Below, one piece after another: positions 6,782 through 64,000 of a stretch of DNA of 64,000 bases. Position numbers and translations under genes: made by a program. Position 1 is the stretch's first letter. Each line of letters opens with the position of its first letter. The notes under the pieces are model-generated. The model had not been told where the DNA came from. It did not search any database and saw nothing but the letters and a program-made list of their open reading frames with translations. Origin of the DNA: Savitreella phatthalungensis (taxonomy: Eukaryota); contig AP039690.1 in assembly GCA_051599415.1 (NCBI GenBank), positions 248,001-312,000 of the forward strand. Direction: 5' to 3'.

Positions 6782-8029
6782 ATGGTGTACAAAGGTCTTG
6801 CGATCGTCGCAGCTGCTCTTGCGGCGCTTGTGGCATTAAACTTCCAGCTGATACTCAAGGGCAAGCCTAATAAGCGTGTCTGGATGACGTTGCTCACAAA
6901 TGGAGACTATCTCGATGGAGCTCTCACACTGGACTATTCGCTCAAGCATCATCAATCCAAATACCCGCTCATAGTCATGCACCCGCAAGACATTGATCAG
7001 AAAGTTCTCGATGAATTGCACCGACGCAGCATTCAAACAAAGCCGATCAATATGATCTTCCCTGCGACACACAAGGACTATGGCATTGATACTCGCTTCT
7101 ACGACTGCTGGTCAAAGCTGCTACCACACGGTATGACTGAATATGACCGCGTGGTTGAGCTAGATGCCGACATGCTGCTCTTGAAGAACGCAGACGAGCT
7201 CATTGAGATGCCGCTAGAGCGCGGATCGATGGCGGCGACTCACGCCTGTGTCTGTAATCCCCGCAAGTTCGATCACTATCCGATTGACTGGGTGCCCGAA
7301 TCGTGTGCGTATACCGCACAACACGGAGAGCCCGAAACGGCTCACCTGAACGAACATACGCCCCAAGCTACCTTTGGTCTCGGCATCCTCAATGGCGGAT
7401 TGCAGGTTGTCGATCCCAACCAGAAGCACTTCAACGATATCATGGAAATTCTCAGCAACGCCACATTGACGGACAGTTTCGCCTTTGCAGATCAGTCACT
7501 GCTTTCATACTACTTCGGCGACAAGTGGACGCCATTACCTTATGTGTACAACGCGCTCAAAACACTCAGATCAGTGCATGAACCTATTTGGCGTGATGAC
7601 AAGGTCAAGATTGTACACTACATATTGAGCGACAAGCCCTGGAAGGATATGCTCAAACAGGACTCAGAGTTCGAGCCAAATCGCTGGTGGTGGCAAATGA
7701 ACGAGCTGCGCTTGAGGCGTGAGCAGATCGATGTTTTGCGCAAGGAGATCGATGCTCTGGTTTCTCAAACTAAGACCGTTCTCTTTTCAAAGAGCTACTG
7801 TCCATATTGCCGCAACGCAAAACGCATACTCTCAGAAGCCGGCATCAAATATCGCTTGATCGAGCTCGATCAGCGTGACGATGGCCAGGAGATGCAGGTG
7901 GCTCTGAGTGAGAAATCAGGCTCGAGAACCGTCCCGCAGCTCTTCGTCTATAACAAATACATTGGTGGTTCCAGCGACCTGCAGCGGATAGCGGACGAGG
8001 AACATGGCATGAAAAAGCTTTTCGCATAG
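6782..8029 (+). CDS. Type II membrane GT8 glycosyltransferase (similar to S. pombe Otg galactosyltransferases) fused to a C-terminal dithiol glutaredoxin
   Basis: N-terminal signal anchor; GT8 motifs CWSKL, LDADML (DxD), HACVCNP, NGG, DQSLL, YNALKT and VHYILSDKPW. These are followed in frame by FSKSYCPYC...RTVPQLFV...IGGSSD. Confidence 0.88.
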   Translation: MVYKGLAIVAAALAALVALNFQLILKGKPNKRVWMTLLTNGDYLDGALTLDYSLKHHQSKYPLIVMHPQDIDQKVLDELHRRSIQTKPINMIFPATHKDYGIDTRFYDCWSKLLPHGMTEYDRVVELDADMLLLKNADELIEMPLERGSMAATHACVCNPRKFDHYPIDWVPESCAYTAQHGEPETAHLNEHTPQATFGLGILNGGLQVVDPNQKHFNDIMEILSNATLTDSFAFADQSLLSYYFGDKWTPLPYVYNALKTLRSVHEPIWRDDKVKIVHYILSDKPWKDMLKQDSEFEPNRWWWQMNELRLRREQIDVLRKEIDALVSQTKTVLFSKSYCPYCRNAKRILSEAGIKYRLIELDQRDDGQEMQVALSEKSGSRTVPQLFVYNKYIGGSSDLQRIADEEHGMKKLFA

Positions 8030-43016: not shown

Positions 43017-43865
43017 CTATTGTACCTCAAGTTCGTCGTTGTCGTAAGCATTTCGTGAAAGGGTGTCGACAAGCTCTCTGCGCAAGCTTTCCAGAGCCAC
43101 TTCATGAGCGACACGCAGGGCTGAATTGGCAGCCCGATGGGCATTGAGGGCCTCGATGGCAGCTCTATATGCTTCTTCGCGGCCATCCAGATTGCGCCTT
43201 ATATTGACCAGGTCACTGACAAGGCCCGCGATGTCGTCTCTATGCCGCTTAGCCTCCTTGCGATGGGCCTCTTGCAAGACGTCATTTTCGTTCTCAAGCC
43301 TGCCAATCAATGCCTTGTCCATTTCTGTCTGGCGACTGACCGAATCCAACTGCTCCTCAAGCGTGTTGCGCTTCATCACGAGCTCTTGCAGTTCGCACGC
43401 GGTCGTCGAGAGGCGGTCGCGTAGTGAGCGAAGCAATGTATCTGCGCGTTCGAGACTTATAGCCTGACTATCGCCAGCGGAACGCTGCGTTGCCAACGCT
43501 TCTTCGAGGAGAAGTTTCTTGCGCAAAAGCGCGGCCTTCTCTCGGCCTTCGTTCTCCAGTCGTAGGCGCAGCTCGTTATTTGCGCGTTGTAGATTGTCGC
43601 GCTCGACCATCAGCGCCTCTAATTTGCGTGTCGTTATCGTACTGGCCGTTCGTCGGTGTGTGCCGTTCGGAATGTCGCTCAGCACCTCCCCGGCCGTCGA
43701 AAGACATCTGATCGATGGGCTTCGCATCTTGACGCGCACCGAAAGGCTCTCGAGACTGCGCAGCTCACTTGCAGACTCCTTGATTTCTTCGCGCAACCTC
43801 TCTGCTTCGATCGCAGCCGTGTCCCTGGCACTCGACGGTCGCGACGTCATGGTCGTTGTCCTCAT
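43017..43865 (-). CDS. Coiled-coil hypothetical protein (possibly She3-like)
   Basis: 282-aa ORF that is nearly all heptad repeats. The family assignment is tentative. Confidence 0.6.
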   Translation of the reverse strand: MRTTTMTSRPSSARDTAAIEAERLREEIKESASELRSLESLSVRVKMRSPSIRCLSTAGEVLSDIPNGTHRRTASTITTRKLEALMVERDNLQRANNELRLRLENEGREKAALLRKKLLLEEALATQRSAGDSQAISLERADTLLRSLRDRLSTTACELQELVMKRNTLEEQLDSVSRQTEMDKALIGRLENENDVLQEAHRKEAKRHRDDIAGLVSDLVNIRRNLDGREEAYRAAIEALNAHRAANSALRVAHEVALESLRRELVDTLSRNAYDNDELEVQ

Positions 43866-57149: not shown

Positions 57150-57372
57150 CAAACCAAACTGTAAAACCAAACTGTAAAATCAAACTGTGAAAAGCAAACT
57201 GTAAAACCAAACTGCAGAGCCAGACTGTGAAGACCAATTTGCAAAAACCAAACTGCATCCAAGACTGCAGCGTTCCACAGATGTGAACCAAACTGCATCA
57301 TGAACTCTGCATTTTCTGCATTCCCTGCATTGCCTGCATTCCACTGCATTCCACTGCATTCCACTGCATTCT
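57150..57372. repeat. Short degenerate tandem repeats (AAACCAAACTGT-like, then CCACTGCATT-like)
   Basis: Read directly from the sequence. Confidence 0.8.
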
Positions 57373-57622
57373 ATGCATATGACTGCCTTCTCTGCATCTG
57401 TCTGTGCCTGAATGTGAAAAATTCGGCAAAATCCCCAGTATCAGAACACTCAGAGAAATGTTCTGACCTCATGCATGGAGGGAAAGTACTGAGAGCGCTC
57501 TTGCTCCCTGACTGTCTAGAGCTTATTGGCAGTTAATTGTTGCTCCAAGCAGGATTTGAACTGGAGACCTCAACATTCAAATTCTGCCAGACCTGCATCT
57601 ACCCTCCATGCACAAAGCTTGT

Positions 57623-57718
57623 GACTCAGTAGCTCAGTGAGGGCCAAATCACTGTGCCACGAGACCAAGGGACTCAGTAGCTCAGTGAGGGCCAAATCAC
57701 TGTGCCACGAGACCAAGG
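57623..57718. repeat. Perfect 48-bp tandem duplication
   Basis: GACTCAGTAGCTCAGTGAGGGCCAAATCACTGTGCCACGAGACCAAGG occurs twice. Confidence 0.95.
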
Positions 57719-58481
57719 GCTCTGCATTGTGAGCACGCGGCAAGCTCAGTATGTAAATGAAAATCTGTTGTACATGTGAAAATGTTTCTTATAGAGTTGA
57801 TCAATGGCATCATGATGAGACTAGTCTCATGATCATCCCACACCTGGATCAGAAAATATAGCCTATCAAAGCGGTCAAAATGGAAGATGATGTCATGTTG
57901 TGTATACATAGAGGCATAAATAAGATGAGATAGGACATAAGGTAGGAACAAAATGGATTGTTCAAGTGGTGCACATCTAAATGGCATAGACTTGCATGCA
58001 TTGACAACAAATGAAATTGGTGTGGAAATGAGAGATAGATAGTGGTGATCACAGTCAATCAAAAGTAGACAGGGTGGTCAAACAAGCTAGAGAGAAAGCA
58101 CAGACAGGCACAGTCACAATGTAGTTGACAGATTACAGTGCATGACAGTGGCCAGTACAGGTGACAGCGCACAAGACAGGCAATTGGAGCAAGTGAGAGT
58201 GAATTAGAGTTGGTTCTGGCATAAAGGGCACAGCGCAGTGCAAGCAATGGAATTGACAAGCAACAGTGGAGGAAACAGTGCATGCCAAATGACATTGCAG
58301 TCAATTGCAATTGATTGATGTTGCACAACAGGCGCCAGTGCCAATTGCAGTCCAAGGATTGAGAATGCAGGCAACAGGGTAGGGCCAGGGCCAAGGAGGT
58401 GGTGTTTATAACAAGCAGAGACAGAGTCAGTGGCAGGGCCAGGTGACAAATGACAGTGACAAGTGCAGGAATGACACATCA

Positions 58482-59209
58482 AGTGACAGTGCAGTTTGAA
58501 CAGATGACATCATTCAGCCAATGGCAGTGCAGTAATGAAACAAGGTACAGTGCAGGCAACAAGTGTGTGATACACAACAGGGGTTGACAGGTCAACAGCA
58601 ATTGGCAGATCAAGGGTTTGACAAATGTTGGGTCACAGAGCGGGGCAGTGGGTCAGGTGACGGTGCAGGCAACAGCATTTGCCAGATGATGGTGCAGGTA
58701 ATGGCATTTGACAGATGTGTTGCAGGTAAAGGCGGTTGACAGATGTGTTGCAGGTAAAGATGTTTGACAGGTGGCAGTGCAGGTAACAGCATTTGACAAG
58801 CGACATGCAAGTAACAGCATGTGACAGGTGACATGCAGATAACAGCATTTGGCATTTGGCAGGTGACGGTGCAGTTGCAGATGAAACAGATGGCAGGGCG
58901 ATTAACAGTTGGAATGTGGGGAGCAAATGGCATGGGATGTGTCAGGTAAACAGGAGGAAGAATGTCAGATAGAGGAGGGATTGAGAGCAGGAGTACAGCA
59001 GAGAGAGGAGCAGCAAGAAAACAGCAAGATGATGATGATGTTGAAGATCAGCAGGGACATATGCGTGCGGACAAGTGCAGTATAGCAAGGCAGCAGGCGT
59101 TATCAAAGAAACAAGGTTAACAAGCAAGCGAGCGAGCGAGCAAGCAAGCGAGCAAAGCGGAGCAAGGGTTGGGGCATTGGTTAGTTTGACGGCGGTTAGT
59201 TTTTGTGGG
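58482..59209 (-). repeat. Telomere-adjacent sequence (TAS), copy A
   Basis: Its reverse complement aligns with 63251-64000 (CAAAAACTAACCGCCGTCAAACTA...CAATGCCCCAACCCTTGCTC...). Confidence 0.9.
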
Positions 59210-59269
59210 TCAGGGTGAGGGTGAGGGTTAGGGTTAGGGTCAGGGTCAGGGTCAGGGTCAGGGTCAGGG
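59210..59269 (+). repeat. Interstitial degenerate telomere tract (10 hexamers: TCAGGG, TGAGGG, TTAGGG)
   Basis: TCAGGG (TGAGGG)2 (TTAGGG)2 (TCAGGG)5, immediately distal to TAS copy A. Confidence 0.93.
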
Positions 59270-59338
59270 TCTAGATATATGCCTCGCATTTGACCCCGTT
59301 TGTTTGACCTGGTTTAGATAGGGGCAATTTTTTCGTCT

Positions 59339-60269
59339 GACAAACGGCGCAATGCACAAAAATTTGGCGCCGTTTGTCGTGCATCCGACCTCAAATTGGC
59401 GCCAAAATGGCGCCGTTTGTCAGCGGGGCCGGAAAGATAAAATTTGGTCCTATCTGGAGGCCCTCAGAAGAATAATTTGATCTCCAAAAAATATCAATTT
59501 TGGCGCCGTTTGTCAAGTTTTGGTCATGTGAGGCGCCGTTTGTCAGGCACCTGACCAGCAAATTGGCGCCGTTTTTTGGAAATAGATTGCCTGTGCGCCG
59601 TTTGTTCTGTGCATCCATTTGAAATTGGCGCCGTTTGTCAGGCACCTGACCACCAAATTGGCGCCGTTTGTCAAACACCTAGCGAGGATCTGGCGCCGTT
59701 TGTTGTGCATCCATCTGAAATTGGCGCCGTTTGTCAGACAGCTGACCACCAAATTGGCGCCGTTTGTCGTGCATCCATTCAAGATTGGCGCCGTTTGTCA
59801 GACAGCTGACCAGCAAATTGGCGCCGTTTGTTGTGCATCCAATTGAGATTGGCGCCGTTTGTCAGACAGCTGACTACCAAATTGGCGCCGTTTGTCGTGC
59901 ATCCATATGAGATTGGCGCCGTTTGTCAGACAGCTGACCAGCAAATTGGCGCCGTTTGTCGTGCATCCATTCAAGATTGGCGCCGTTTGTCAGGCAGCTG
60001 ACCACCAAATTGGCGCCGTTTGTCAAACACCTAGTGAGTACTTGGCGCCGTTTGTCGTGCATCCATTCAAGATTGGCGCCGTTTGTCAGACAGCTGACCA
60101 CCAAATTGGCGCCGTTTGTCAAACACCTAGTGAGTGCTTGGCGCCGTTTGTTGTGCATCCATTCAAGATTGGCGCCGTTTGTCAGACAGCTGACCACCAA
60201 ATTGGCGCCGTTTGTCAAACACCTAGTGAGTGCTTGGCGCCGTTTGTTTTGTGCATTGCGCCGTTTGTC
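59339..60269. repeat. Satellite of ~27 TTGGCGCCGTTTGTC cores at 31-33-bp spacing, with 64- and 96-bp higher-order units
   Basis: Three recurring subunits (…AGACAGCTGACCAGCAAA, …GTGCATCCATTCAAGA, …AAACACCTAGTGAGTAC). The array is bounded by a 23-bp inverted repeat. Confidence 0.95.
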
Positions 60270-60419
60270 GAGAACCCTGTCCTTTCTGGGTTGCAAGGTT
60301 GTGTTTTGCAGCAAGTCTCACCACCCCGCTGGACTTGACCAAAAGAAAGTCATGTTGATGTTCTGACAAGACAGTGTGAGAGCTTTGCACGTTTTGTTAT
60401 GGGATTATGAATGAGTGCT

Positions 60420-61090
60420 CGCAAGACTCTACAGCATCATTGTAGAACACTGACAAGACTCTGCAGCATCATCGGCAAGCACTTGCAAGACACTACACTA
60501 TCAAGAGCGAGCATTTGCCAGACACTGCAGCATGATTGACAATCACTCGCCGGACGCTACAGCACAATCAATGATCACTCGCAAGACACTATAACACGAT
60601 CAACAATCACTCGCCAGACACTACAACACGGTCGACAATCACTTGCTGGACACTGCAGCATCATCGACGGACACTTGTTGGACTCTGCTGTATCATTGAC
60701 GGGCACTTGTTGGACTCTGCAGCATCATCGACGGGCACTCGCCGGACTCTGCTGTATCATCGACAAGCACTCGCCGGACACCGCAGCGTCATTGACGGGC
60801 ACTCGCTGGACGCTGCAGCAACATCGACGGGCACTCGCTGGACGCTGCAGCAACATCGACGGGCACTCGCCGGACACTGCAGCAACATCGACGGGCACTC
60901 GCTGGACGCTGCAGCAACATCGACGGGCACTCGCCGGACACTGCAGCAACATCGACGGGCACTCGCCGGACACTGCAGCATCATCGACAAGCACTCGCCG
61001 GACACTGCAGCGTCATTGACATGCACTTGCTGGACACTACAGTCTCATTGACAGGTACTCGCCAGACTCTGCAGCAATATTGACGGGCAC
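60420..61090. repeat. 32-bp minisatellite (GGACACTGCAGCAACATCGACGGGCACTCGCC), ~20 copies
   Basis: Near-perfect copies at 60800-61000, degenerate toward both edges. Confidence 0.93.
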
Positions 61091-61229
61091 CTGACGGAGT
61101 TGACAGGAGTCCTAGCAAGGGATCCACCAGAATGCGCACACCTTTGAATGTATCATCACTTTTATCTCTTCCAACCAGAACAGTTCCGAGTAATTTTGCA
61201 CAAGTCAATATGAAGATGATTCAAGCTGC

Positions 61230-63052
61230 CTAGCAAGCTGGTGTGGCGCGCCTGAGTGAGCCCTCTGATTCGACAAAGAGAGACCAGAGAAGCAAGGTCG
61301 CCAGACTTGCAGGCAGAGACGAAACCCAGAATCGGAGCTGGCGAAGGTGCGAGATAAAGCTGGTGCCGTTCACCAACATTGCTATCACCTCCTCCTCAGA
61401 GCTCGAGTAGTGGTTCAAGGCACGCAACAGATGAGGATCCTGTCTGCTATACAGGCCCCAGAGAAGCGGCAGCACCGTGTCCCCAAGCACGCAGCTGGTT
61501 GCGTCCTGCTGCTTCCGCGCCAGATAGCATATTTTCATCGCATTGTCGCACACATAACACACAGCCATCTTGTGGTCGTACTTTGCAGCATCCATCTTGT
61601 CGGCCACAAAGCGCCGGTGTCGGGCACAGCTGTCCTTGCTCTCAGCACGGCAATCCTCGTCAAACGCCAGGCAGACGGCGCACTTGCCATTGTAGGCAGT
61701 GAGGAAGTCCACCATCTTTTGCAGCGCGTAGTCAAGTCTGCTGCGCTCAGACTCTGTCAGCTGGGCAAAAGACAGCCTGGCCTCTGTCTGGCCATTTGTT
61801 GACCTCAGCAAGACAGCTGCAGAGTGTACCGTGCCAGGTGCTTGCGTTGCTGAGTTTGGTGTGGCCGGCGCTCGACCTGCGCCTGTCGTGTGCAACCCGA
61901 ACCCAAGGGATGCGTTCGGCGTCGACGGCACTTGGCTGTGAACCTGTGGCAACGCCATCAGGTCTCCAGGGCTGCGGCGCACACCTGAGTGTTCCCGTCT
62001 CACGGTCCTTCGTGATGTGTTGGACGGAGTGGGAGAATGTGTTCCAGGGTAAGGCCATGTCTGGTCCAGTGCCGCTCGCGCTGGCCCGTTGCGCTGAGGT
62101 GCTGACAGCCGACTGTATCTTGGGACACCTGGTCTGGGACTGCTGTACAAGGGCAACGGGCTGCTGCGCACATCAGAGGTCTCTCGGCGACGTTTTGGTG
62201 ACTGTCTGTCACAAGGTGGCTCCAGTGGGAGGTCATTGGTAGGGTGCACGAGCACACTTGTGGCGTCTGTGAGATCTGTGACCGGGGGCGCCGCGTTGTC
62301 TGCCCCGACGCGCTCGATCGGCGCCATTGCAAGCTGGGAGGCTGTCAAGATTGGCTGGGAGTTCTCGTTGATCTGAGACTGGCAGAGGTCACACAGCCGA
62401 CGGCCTGCATTGATGCAAGTCGCTCGTCTGCCATCAAGAAAGTCCTGCATTACTGCCGTCCGGCACTCGACAGCACTCAGCAGCCTTCTCATCTGCAGCA
62501 CAGACTGGATCCGTAGCAGGCCCGCAGTGTCTCGGTTCTCGTCCTCAGGAGGCAGGAAACCTCCCGACGGCATCAGAACATATGACCACGCACCCTTGCC
62601 ATCGCGCCCTGCCCTGCCAATCTCCTGTGCGTAGTCGATCAAAGAGTACGGCGCGTTGCTGTGCACAACAAGCCGGATATCTGCACAGTCCAATCCGGTG
62701 CCGAGGGCGGTGGTGCCCACGATAACGAGTCTCGAGGAATCCTGCCGCCATGCAGCGAGTATCCGCTCGCGTTGGATATGGTGGACGCTCCCGTGGATGA
62801 GCGGCCAGCTGTTCTCCTCGGCCAGCTGTGTGGCTGCATGCCTTGTCTTGCAGATGACCATGGCACGATCGTCGGGCTTGATCCTGTGGCGGTCGAGCAG
62901 GCGCAGCACTGTCTCAGACACAAGCTTGGAGGTGAGCCTCTGGACGGTCTCGACATTCAGGCTGATGTCCTTGCGGATGGTTTCGTGGTCCCGGAAGACA
63001 ATTGTTGGCATGGGGTGGTCTCGCAACACCTTCTCTGCGAGGTCATTCTGCC
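61230..63052 (-). pseudogene. 5'-truncated telomere-linked RecQ helicase (TLH-like)
   Basis: Motif IV (AMVICKTR), motif V (VGTTALGTGLD), motif VI (YAQEIGRAGRDG) and the RecQ Zn site (CR...C...CDLC) are present. Walker A, DEAH and motif III are missing because the frame runs into the telomere repeats. Confidence 0.88.
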
Positions 63053-63106
63053 TTAGGGTTAGGGTTAGGGTTAGGGTTAGGGTTAGGGTTAGGGTTAGGG
63101 TTAGGG
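63053..63106 (+). repeat. Telomere (TTAGGG)9, the likely true right end of this chromosome
   Basis: Perfect TTAGGG repeats followed directly by sequencing adapter. Confidence 0.93.
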
Positions 63107-63158
63107 TTACGTATTGCTAAGGTTAAGACTACTTTCTGCCTTTGCGAGAACAGCACCT
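63106..63158 (+). other. Oxford Nanopore adapter tail plus native barcode NB06 (technical artefact)
   Basis: GTTACGTATTGCT (adapter 3' end) + AAGGTTAA (flank) + GACTACTTTCTGCCTTTGCGAGAA (24-nt barcode) + CAGCACCT (flank). Confidence 0.95.
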
Positions 63159-63254
63159 AACCCTAACCCTAACCCTAACCCTAACCCTAACCCTAACCCT
63201 AACCCTAACCCTAACCCTAACCCTAACCCTAACCCTAACCCTAACCCTAACCCT
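63159..63254 (-). repeat. Telomere (CCCTAA)15 of a second chromosome end
   Basis: Perfect CCCTAA repeats starting right after the barcode flank. Confidence 0.93.
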
Positions 63255-64000
63255 CAAAAACTAACCGCCGTCAAACTATCCAATGCCCCAACCCTTGCTC
63301 TGCTTTGCTCGCTTGCTTGCTTGCTCGCTTGCTCGCTTGCTTGCTAACCTTGTTTCTCTGCTCATGCCTGCTGCCTTGCTACACCTCACTTGTCCGCACG
63401 CATACGCGCCTGCTGGTCTTAAACATCATCATCATCTTGCTGTCGTCTTGGTGCTCCTCTGTGCTGCTCCTCTCTCTGCTGTACTCCTGCTCTCAACACC
63501 CCATCTGTCTGACACTCTTCTTCCTGTTTACCTGAAACATCCCATGCCATTTACTCCCCACATTCCGACTGTTATCCGCTCTGTCACCTGTTTCATCTGC
63601 AACTGCACCATCTCCTGCCAAATGCCGTCACATGCATGTCACCTGTCACACTCTCTTACCTGCATGTCGCCTGTCAAATGCTGTTACCTGCACTGCCACC
63701 TGTCAAACATCTTTATCTTTACCTGCAACACAGCTGTCAACCGCCTATACCTGCAACACATCTGTCAAATGCCATTACCTGCACCATCATCTGGCAAATG
63801 CTGTTGCCTGCACCGTCACCTGACCCACCGCCCCGCTCTGTGACCCAACATTTGTCAAACCCTTGATCTGCCAATTGCTGTTCACCTGTCATCTACTGTT
63901 TTCTGTTTCTGTCACTCACTGTTGCCTGCACTGTCCCCTGTTTCATCACTTCACTGCCATCTGTCAAATGCTGTCATCTGTTAAACACTGCAACATCACT
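63251..64000 (+). repeat. Telomere-adjacent sequence, copy B (continues off the window)
   Basis: Diverged paralog of 58482-59209; pyrimidine-rich, with degenerate internal CTGTCAAATGCTGTTACCTGCAC repeats. Confidence 0.9.

Follow-up and report, generated by a model that had tools for sequence, protein, structure and literature searches.

The 64,000-nucleotide stretch analysed here (hereafter the window, meaning the whole stretch at its full length) corresponds to positions 248,001 to 312,000 of the forward strand of contig AP039690.1 in the Savitreella phatthalungensis assembly GCA_051599415.1, and its DNA is fungal, compact and poor in introns. At 6782..8029 on the + strand it carries a single open reading frame (ORF) of 415 amino acids, running from an ATG with A at -3 and G at +4 to a TAG. 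Within this one protein an N-terminal anchor is joined, with no stop at the junction, to a glycosyltransferase domain of family GT8 with an intact metal-dependent site and to a glutaredoxin in which the nucleophilic cysteine and the glutathione site are kept. The features used below are the following:

6782..8029 (+), complete intronless ORF with anchor, GT8 and glutaredoxin (Pfam; colinear with orthologues)
6794..6856 (+), N-terminal uncharged hydrophobic stretch, residues 5-25, signal anchor or signal peptide (hydropathy)
6872..7717 (+), GT8 catalytic domain, residues ~31-312, glycogenin/Gat1-like GT-A fold (Pfam, Foldseek, structural alignment)
7163..7171 (+), DxD motif D128-A-D130 (both Asp in 81/82 distant representatives)
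7241..7306 (+), Cys-rich insert H154-A-C156-V-C158-N...C175 (conservation counts)
7457..7465 (+), N226-A-T glycosylation sequon (comparison of fused with unfused clusters)
7577..7579 (+), H266, near-invariant His and candidate fourth ligand (80/82 distant representatives)
7616..7642 (+), H279...K285-P-W GT8 motif (H-x-x-x-x-x-KPW)
7673..7768 (+), continuous helix 298-329, from the last GT8 helix into the first glutaredoxin helix (DSSP on the AlphaFold2 model, pLDDT 86-97)
7769..8026 (+), class I glutaredoxin domain, soluble Grx1 type (TIGR02180; tree)
7799..7810 (+), active site C340-P-Y-C343 (C340 the sole active-site Cys invariant among orthologues)
7928..7969 (+), glutathione-site motifs TVP (383-385) and GG (395-396) (orthologue alignment)

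Both domains were found by Pfam, Glyco_transf_8 (PF01501) at residues 37-289 with 59 bits (cut-off 24.3) and Glutaredoxin at residues 333-394 with 66.2 bits (cut-off 22.9). The first-pass annotation of this DNA had described one uninterrupted ORF with a signal anchor, a complete GT8 domain bearing a Cys-rich HACVCN...C loop, a short helical linker and a glutaredoxin with CPYC, TVP and GG motifs, and each of these elements was located as claimed, HACVCN at residues 154-159 with C175, and CPYC encoded by TGT CCA TAT TGC. The AlphaFold2 model (pLDDT 91.2, pTM 0.85, from a 129-row alignment) consists of an N-terminal helix, the GT-A domain, the helix 298-329, which is unbroken between the domains, and the glutaredoxin fold.

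The fusion is real. Among the matches listed (801 hits in 120 clusters, formed at 90% identity), 11 clusters carry both Pfam domains and a twelfth, whose representative is a partial model from Protomyces lactucae-debilis, contains the full-length fused protein P0131; the fused records come from NCBI, ENA, Logan and JGI. All 22 proteins with both domains, out of 286 collected, belong to these 12 clusters, and their sequences are colinear and align nearly gap-free. No methionine is common to the orthologues in residues 286-334, which leaves the glutaredoxin without a conserved start of its own. When a profile of the fused proteins was searched against 1.84 billion representatives, 11,340 hits were obtained, and one of the 150 listed spans both domains. 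A full-length search of the ESM Atlas gave leads that were all < 0.9, giant-virus thioredoxin proteins among them.

The GT8 domains of the fused proteins form one clade (support 97/96, and 98 in another tree). The trees of this analysis were built on hand-picked subsets (65, 36, 30, 47 and 25 rows), and alignment A2 excludes P0025, P0054 and P0126. No second clade with both domains was present among the matches listed, and the fusion appears to have arisen once. It is assigned to Taphrinales, yeasts associated with plants, on two named records, Taphrina deformans CCG81702.1 and Protomyces lactucae-debilis; the Saitoella relative is unfused and anchorless. Metagenome scans for DNA of fused orthologues gave 0 confirmed loci and then seven unfused relatives. 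The architecture, for which the first-pass annotation knew of no description, is rare among the matches listed and confined there to these 12 orthologous clusters, and no publication describing a glycosyltransferase-glutaredoxin fusion was found in a body of literature lacking most subscription journals.

Several gene models in this collection are irregular. The Taphrina record (P0008) is annotated merely as a glycosyltransferase and begins at an internal Met with the anchor missing, so that the model looks truncated, and the Protomyces record ORY73201.1 (P0011) is marked partial and ends in the linker. In P0005 and P0010 the C-termini after TVPQ are odd and resemble intron read-through. Three other subfamily members (P0172, P0189, P0224) are joined to alpha/beta-hydrolase domains, either as real fusions or as merged gene models.

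A GT8 protein of Marchantia polymorpha (P0013/P0287, MARPO_0003s0193) is sister to the fused fungal clade (100/98), and its gene was found on contigs of 24.6-24.7 Mb in four accessions. The MVSR anchor, the PHGM signature and the sequon are held in common with the fused clade; there is no glutaredoxin, the protein ends inside the linker helix and some conserved residues are altered. The gene was probably transferred from a fungus to the liverwort, and no publication was found for its locus tag.

The first domain is assigned to GT8, and predicted to be a transferase, by its profile score, its GT-A fold and its DxD and H...KPW motifs, the latter as defined in PMC5751367. For this domain Foldseek retrieved glycogenin (E 2e-15), and VIA-align matched it to Gat1 (6mw8) with Z 25.4 and an rmsd of 2.1 over 220 residues. 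Conservation was counted in those 82 of 148 new representatives that have long GT8 matches. C156 and C158 are each kept in 81 of them and C175 in all 82, H154 in 50 and C109 in seven. In a comparison made with the relative P0020, the stretch holding the Cys insert did not align to glycogenin or Gat1. Because the three cysteines and the histidine are conserved in mostly anchorless proteins, a metal site is favoured over disulfides, and the pattern suggests C156, C158, C175 and H266 as a candidate Cys3His site.

The glutaredoxin domain scored 87.9 bits with TIGR02180 (cut-off 87.25), its structural matches are class I glutaredoxins (Z 16-18), and in the tree it groups with soluble fungal Grx1 (98/98). 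K337, C340 and TVP are invariant in the fused orthologues (TVP in 13/13 fused sequences) and GG is present in 10/10 full-length ones, from which the domain is probably active. Across the 12 fused clusters the active site reads CPHC in ten, CGYS in one and CPYC only in that of the window gene. The intact dithiol glutaredoxin described earlier therefore stands for the window gene and not for the family; as C340 alone is invariant, the domain is predicted to need a single cysteine, the second being dispensable. The ten full-length fused orthologues are on average 71% identical to one another in GT8 and 58% in the glutaredoxin.

Descent from the anchored CPHS type (Grx6/7-like) was considered and rejected. 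Grouping with seven CPHS proteins gave p=0.00055 in the approximately unbiased (AU) test, these rows including the anchored protein of the same genome and being mostly fragments with the anchor unseen, in a tree without the yeast Grx6/7 sequences themselves. The Grx6/Grx7-type comparison made in the first-pass annotation is not supported, and by its sequence affinities the window protein is not a derivative of that type.

Glutaredoxins encoded elsewhere in the same genome comprise a free one with CPYC, an anchored one with CPHS and two of CG[FY]S type. The anchored monothiol CPHS protein (L004:1423-2583 (-), G000:C8) has a low-complexity stem of ~230 amino acids. An anchorless CxCN..C GT8 paralogue (L002:1489-2610 (-), G000:C17), with the motif HGCICNI...ENCP, is 38% identical to the window protein. 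Two further GT8-like proteins, similar to each other and anchored (L005:1273-2466 (-) and L007:1177-2316 (-)), have stems and no Cys motif, and are candidates for a Golgi glycan-modifying role.

The N-terminus of the window protein reaches a Kyte-Doolittle 15-residue maximum of 2.69. With a threshold of > 1.6, 16 of the 22 fused proteins have a hydrophobic N-terminus, the other six beginning at an internal Met as truncated models, and just seven of 241 GT8-only proteins pass; the nearest unfused GT8s, ~50% identical to the window protein, are without one. The N226 sequon is present in 11/12 fused clusters against 11/105 unfused relatives, and the one fused cluster that lacks it has another at 190. 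Spare cysteines are absent from 12/12 fused clusters, as against 38/105 unfused relatives. As the fused clusters are kin, these sequon and cysteine counts are not independent and overstate the evidence that they give.

On these counts a lumenal position of both domains is rated likelier than a cytosolic one. A smaller share of the probability goes to a reverse signal anchor in the endoplasmic reticulum or mitochondrial outer membrane with both domains facing the cytosol, an orientation against which the sequon and the missing spare cysteines speak. In its favour, the anchor flanks of the window protein carry +1 on the N side and +4 on the C side, and in 12/12 rows the anchor is followed by at least as much positive charge (+1 to +4) as precedes it (+1); N226 may be a helix cap; and the closest relatives of both halves, by sequence, are soluble proteins, namely anchorless fungal GT8s and Grx1-type glutaredoxins. 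The lumenal placement proposed in the first-pass annotation is retained as the likelier one, the flank charges and an almost absent stem between anchor and catalytic domain being contrary to it. Orientation towards the cytosol is a separate question of topology and is compatible with the ascorbate-like chemistry proposed below.

Outside the fungi, the CxCN..C GT8 subfamily was found in bacteria, where its members are 39% identical to the window protein over 279 residues and have the Cys motif intact. At 39/40 genome loci the GT8 gene is preceded on the same strand by that of an ALO-family FAD oxidase, which ends 11-109 bases before it, and a second scan added five genomes, four of them with the oxidase. 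In the reverse view, a GT8 gene lies downstream of 16/16 close oxidases (four of which repeat earlier loci) and of 0/64 distant ones. The hosts are Actinomycetota, Pseudomonadota and Acidobacteriota, and the genes form one clade. The ALO family includes enzymes that make ascorbate and erythroascorbate; to our knowledge, no function has been ascribed to the bacterial pair. Both the oxidase and the ALO of the window genome have a WWFP motif and a C-[YF]-x-G-x-x-x-Y strand, and the oxidase is without the AHFTW strand of alditol oxidases.

The pair was seen at L026-L065 and L069-L095 (e.g. L034:2567-4840 and L047:2522-4819), in plant-, insect- and soil-associated bacteria, and in Erwiniaceae a TetR regulator often precedes it. 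One record, titled Vibrio cholerae (L063:3567-4735), has an oxidase fragment of just 133 residues, and the Cys motif of its GT8 was not found, which suggests a decaying copy of the pair. No glutaredoxin gene was present in 47 loci around unfused relatives.

The reading favoured here, with a probability of about 0.3, is that the window gene encodes a membrane-anchored, probably lumenal enzyme that reduces and then glycosylates an ascorbate-like enediol. With a UDP-sugar as donor, the GT8 domain would attach glucose or galactose in alpha linkage to erythroascorbate or a related ascorbate-like enediol. Where the compartment is oxidising, this acceptor, or its 5-O-glycoside with a free enediol, would become the dehydro form, and the attached glutaredoxin would use glutathione and a single cysteine to return it to the reduced state. 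An antioxidant glycoside would in this way be both produced and regenerated by the fusion, at the cell surface or within the secretory pathway, and the anchorless paralogue L002 could retain a cytosolic role.

Several observations are consistent with such a substrate. The erythroascorbate glycosides of fungi are alpha-linked and GT8 enzymes are described as retaining, and the window genome has both an ALO gene and the anchorless paralogue. The CxCN..C GT8 subfamily has entered two separate partnerships, with the oxidase in bacteria and with the glutaredoxin in fungi, and therefore a single redox-active small acceptor is pointed to. D-Erythroascorbate and its 5-O-glycosides are made by fungi (PMC6191929; PMC4396506), glutaredoxin uses its active-site cysteine to catalyse the reduction of dehydroascorbate (PMC6191929), the dehydro form of ascorbate is the predominant one in the plant apoplast (PMC11066809), and UDP-Glc and UDP-Galp are predicted in Taphrinales (PMC8092308).

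A number of points weigh against this reading. The bacterial oxidase is below both NCBIfam cut-offs. Among solved structures xylitol oxidase comes closest to it, and the Glu that lactone oxidases carry in P-x-E-x-R is replaced by Ile. A quick tree grouped it with fungal ALO, and the sister relation was dropped as a probable long-branch attraction because the grouping vanished under a mixture model (three rows of the tree, all without the HWxK motif, were called 'AldOlike' by guess). A scan of 24 long representatives found no ALO-GT8 fusion. Since the bacterial genes are a single clade, probably spread horizontally, their link counts for about one evolutionary event, and the bacterial GT8s share just 39% identity with the window protein. 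In the window genome the ALO gene is on contig C5 and the fused gene on contig C2. A neighbour cluster in the ESM Atlas (score 0.98) is automatically named after Mug136, which we take to be Otg2, a glycan-acting enzyme. According to PMC4396506, there is no clear evidence of ascorbate synthesis in prokaryotes.

The ascorbate-like reading can be widened to the subfamily, though this wider version is held tentatively. CxCN..C GT8s would make the fungal erythroascorbate glycosides, and Taphrinales would have fused one to a dehydroascorbate-reducing glutaredoxin and relocated it to the secretory pathway; plant and soil bacteria would have a two-gene operon for an ascorbate-like glycoside, and a liverwort would have taken up the anchored gene.

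A serious rival, itself tentative, is that the glutaredoxin maintains its own partner, by deglutathionylating or switching C156, C158 and C175 in cis or across a dimer, after a thiol-dependent enzyme, H266 possibly lying in its metal site, had been moved from the cytosol to an oxidising compartment. This is close to the redox module that the first-pass annotation had imagined as regulating or protecting the transferase cysteines, a proposal that stays in contention, with an ascorbate-like small substrate at least as likely. In support, the three cysteines hardly vary among relatives that are mostly anchorless, where disulfides are unlikely, anchor and glutaredoxin co-occur in the fused clade, and extra cysteines are absent from 12/12 fused clusters, as against 38/105 unfused relatives. 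Moreover, the Golgi is strongly oxidising (PMC11904595), Grx6 is a lumenal reductant (PMC4279222) and a redox-switched Golgi glycosyltransferase is known (PMC6454061). Nevertheless, anchored relatives without a glutaredoxin exist (Marchantia P0013/P0287, P0180 and P0226), the genome already has the anchored CPHS glutaredoxin, the predicted structure puts the glutaredoxin at the end of a rigid helix, and lumenal plant glutaredoxins oxidise better than they reduce (10.1101/2023.09.01.555924). An analogy with the cysteines of LgtC found no support in the accessible part of PMC9952996, and a search of the literature for a link between galactinol synthase and dithiothreitol (DTT) returned nothing relevant.

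The two enzymes might also be independent passengers on one anchor, the glutaredoxin gaining a route to the membrane or lumen for general redox buffering; this is possible, if doubtful. As the fusion appears to have arisen once (12/12 clusters in one clade, 97/96), it has no support from repeated origins, and the glutaredoxin drifts faster than GT8 (58% vs 71% mean identity) with a variable motif. However, the catalytic motifs are intact in all 12 clusters, the length of the linker is near-fixed, and the fusion was retained although the genome has free and anchored glutaredoxins.

A role as a Golgi alpha-galactosyltransferase of the Otg kind, which would modify N- or O-glycans of proteins while the glutaredoxin attends to cysteines in the client glycoproteins, is unlikely. 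The thioredoxin-like OST3/6 subunits do likewise for oligosaccharyltransferase, and CPHC, the common active site of the fused clade, is also the oxidising motif of DsbA. The anchor, the conserved sequon and the Mug136-named Atlas neighbour (0.98) agree with such a role, and Otg1-3 form alpha-1,3-galactose linkages (PMC12892413). Against it, the nearest relatives are anchorless fungal and bacterial enzymes, the stem between anchor and catalytic domain is almost absent, and two other anchored GT8s of this genome (L005, L007) do possess stems and lack the Cys motif. The choice of Otg as the proper comparison in the first-pass annotation is not borne out as stated, the nearest unfused GT8 relatives being anchorless.

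That two neighbouring genes were merged through an assembly or annotation error is very improbable: the same architecture recurs in 12 clusters from four public sources at 57-73% identity, and the orthologues share no internal start.

In the window, the neighbours of the fused gene are unrelated housekeeping genes with no pathway cluster. The ORF at 43017-43865 (-), of 282 amino acids, has no Pfam match. The region 57151-64000 is subtelomere-like, with many tandem arrays (e.g. 59622-60247 and 60457-61090) and a Helicase_C ORF at 61230-63011 (-). TTAGGG repeats (63053-63109) and then CCTAAC repeats (63156-63254) lie well within contig C2, and they may mark either a join made in assembly or an internal end-to-end junction.

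By all features tested, save the conservation of the dithiol motif, the window protein is a GT8 joined to a class I glutaredoxin. Both domains are textbook ones; their combination with an anchor, which seems restricted to a single fungal lineage, is a natural case of redox chemistry wired straight to sugar transfer. For a GT8 subfamily that is widespread in fungi, the bacterial gene pair offers a concrete hypothesis on the substrate. We know of no gene identified for the fungal erythroascorbate glycosides. If the ascorbate-like reading is true, it would name that gene and would point to bacteria as makers of an ascorbate-like product, a synthesis not established for them. Should self-maintenance or a passenger fusion alone hold, the result is a lineage-specific fusion of moderate interest.

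Compared with known systems, the best structural matches of the GT8 half are the Skp1 alpha-galactosyltransferase Gat1 (Toxoplasma/Pythium-type, PDB 6mw5/6mw8) and glycogenin (Z 25.4 and 24.4), which have the same GT-A fold, DxD and H...KPW but differ in having neither the Cys insert of ~45 residues nor a glutaredoxin, at 20-29% identity. The anchorless CxCN..C subfamily, made up of fungal proteins (Lipomyces, Pezizomycotina, Gonapodya, Komagataella, Saitoella) and the oxidase-paired bacterial branch, is nearer (~50% and 39% identity, respectively), with the same three Cys and His and the same catalytic motifs, and lacks both anchor and glutaredoxin; no characterised member turned up in the searches. 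The S. pombe alpha-1,3-galactosyltransferases Otg1-3 are likewise anchored Taphrinomycotina GT8s, with the Mug136 name on the Atlas neighbour, but they are stand-alone enzymes. Plant galactinol synthase (inositol 3-alpha-galactosyltransferase) is a small-molecule GT8 whose database label is borne by the Marchantia sister protein, and it presumably has a similarly placed Cys motif; it differs in being cytosolic and having no glutaredoxin. A fungal ancestry has been proposed for it (PMC5751367).

On the glutaredoxin side, fungal Grx1 is the sister group (98/98) and has the motifs SKSYC, TVP and GG[NS]SDL in common with the fused domain; Grx1 is a soluble dithiol class I enzyme, whereas the fused domain is anchored via its partner and its second Cys appears dispensable. 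Yeast Grx6/Grx7 and plant GRXC3/C4 are class I glutaredoxins of the secretory pathway, as the probably lumenal fused domain would be, but they stand alone on their own anchors, and the fused domain is not from the fungal anchored CPHS type. Finally, UGGT (GT24) has a GT8-like catalytic fold (Z 19.5, 14% identity), and its chain also contains thioredoxin-fold domains, which are non-catalytic folding sensors; its fusion event is unrelated to the one described here.
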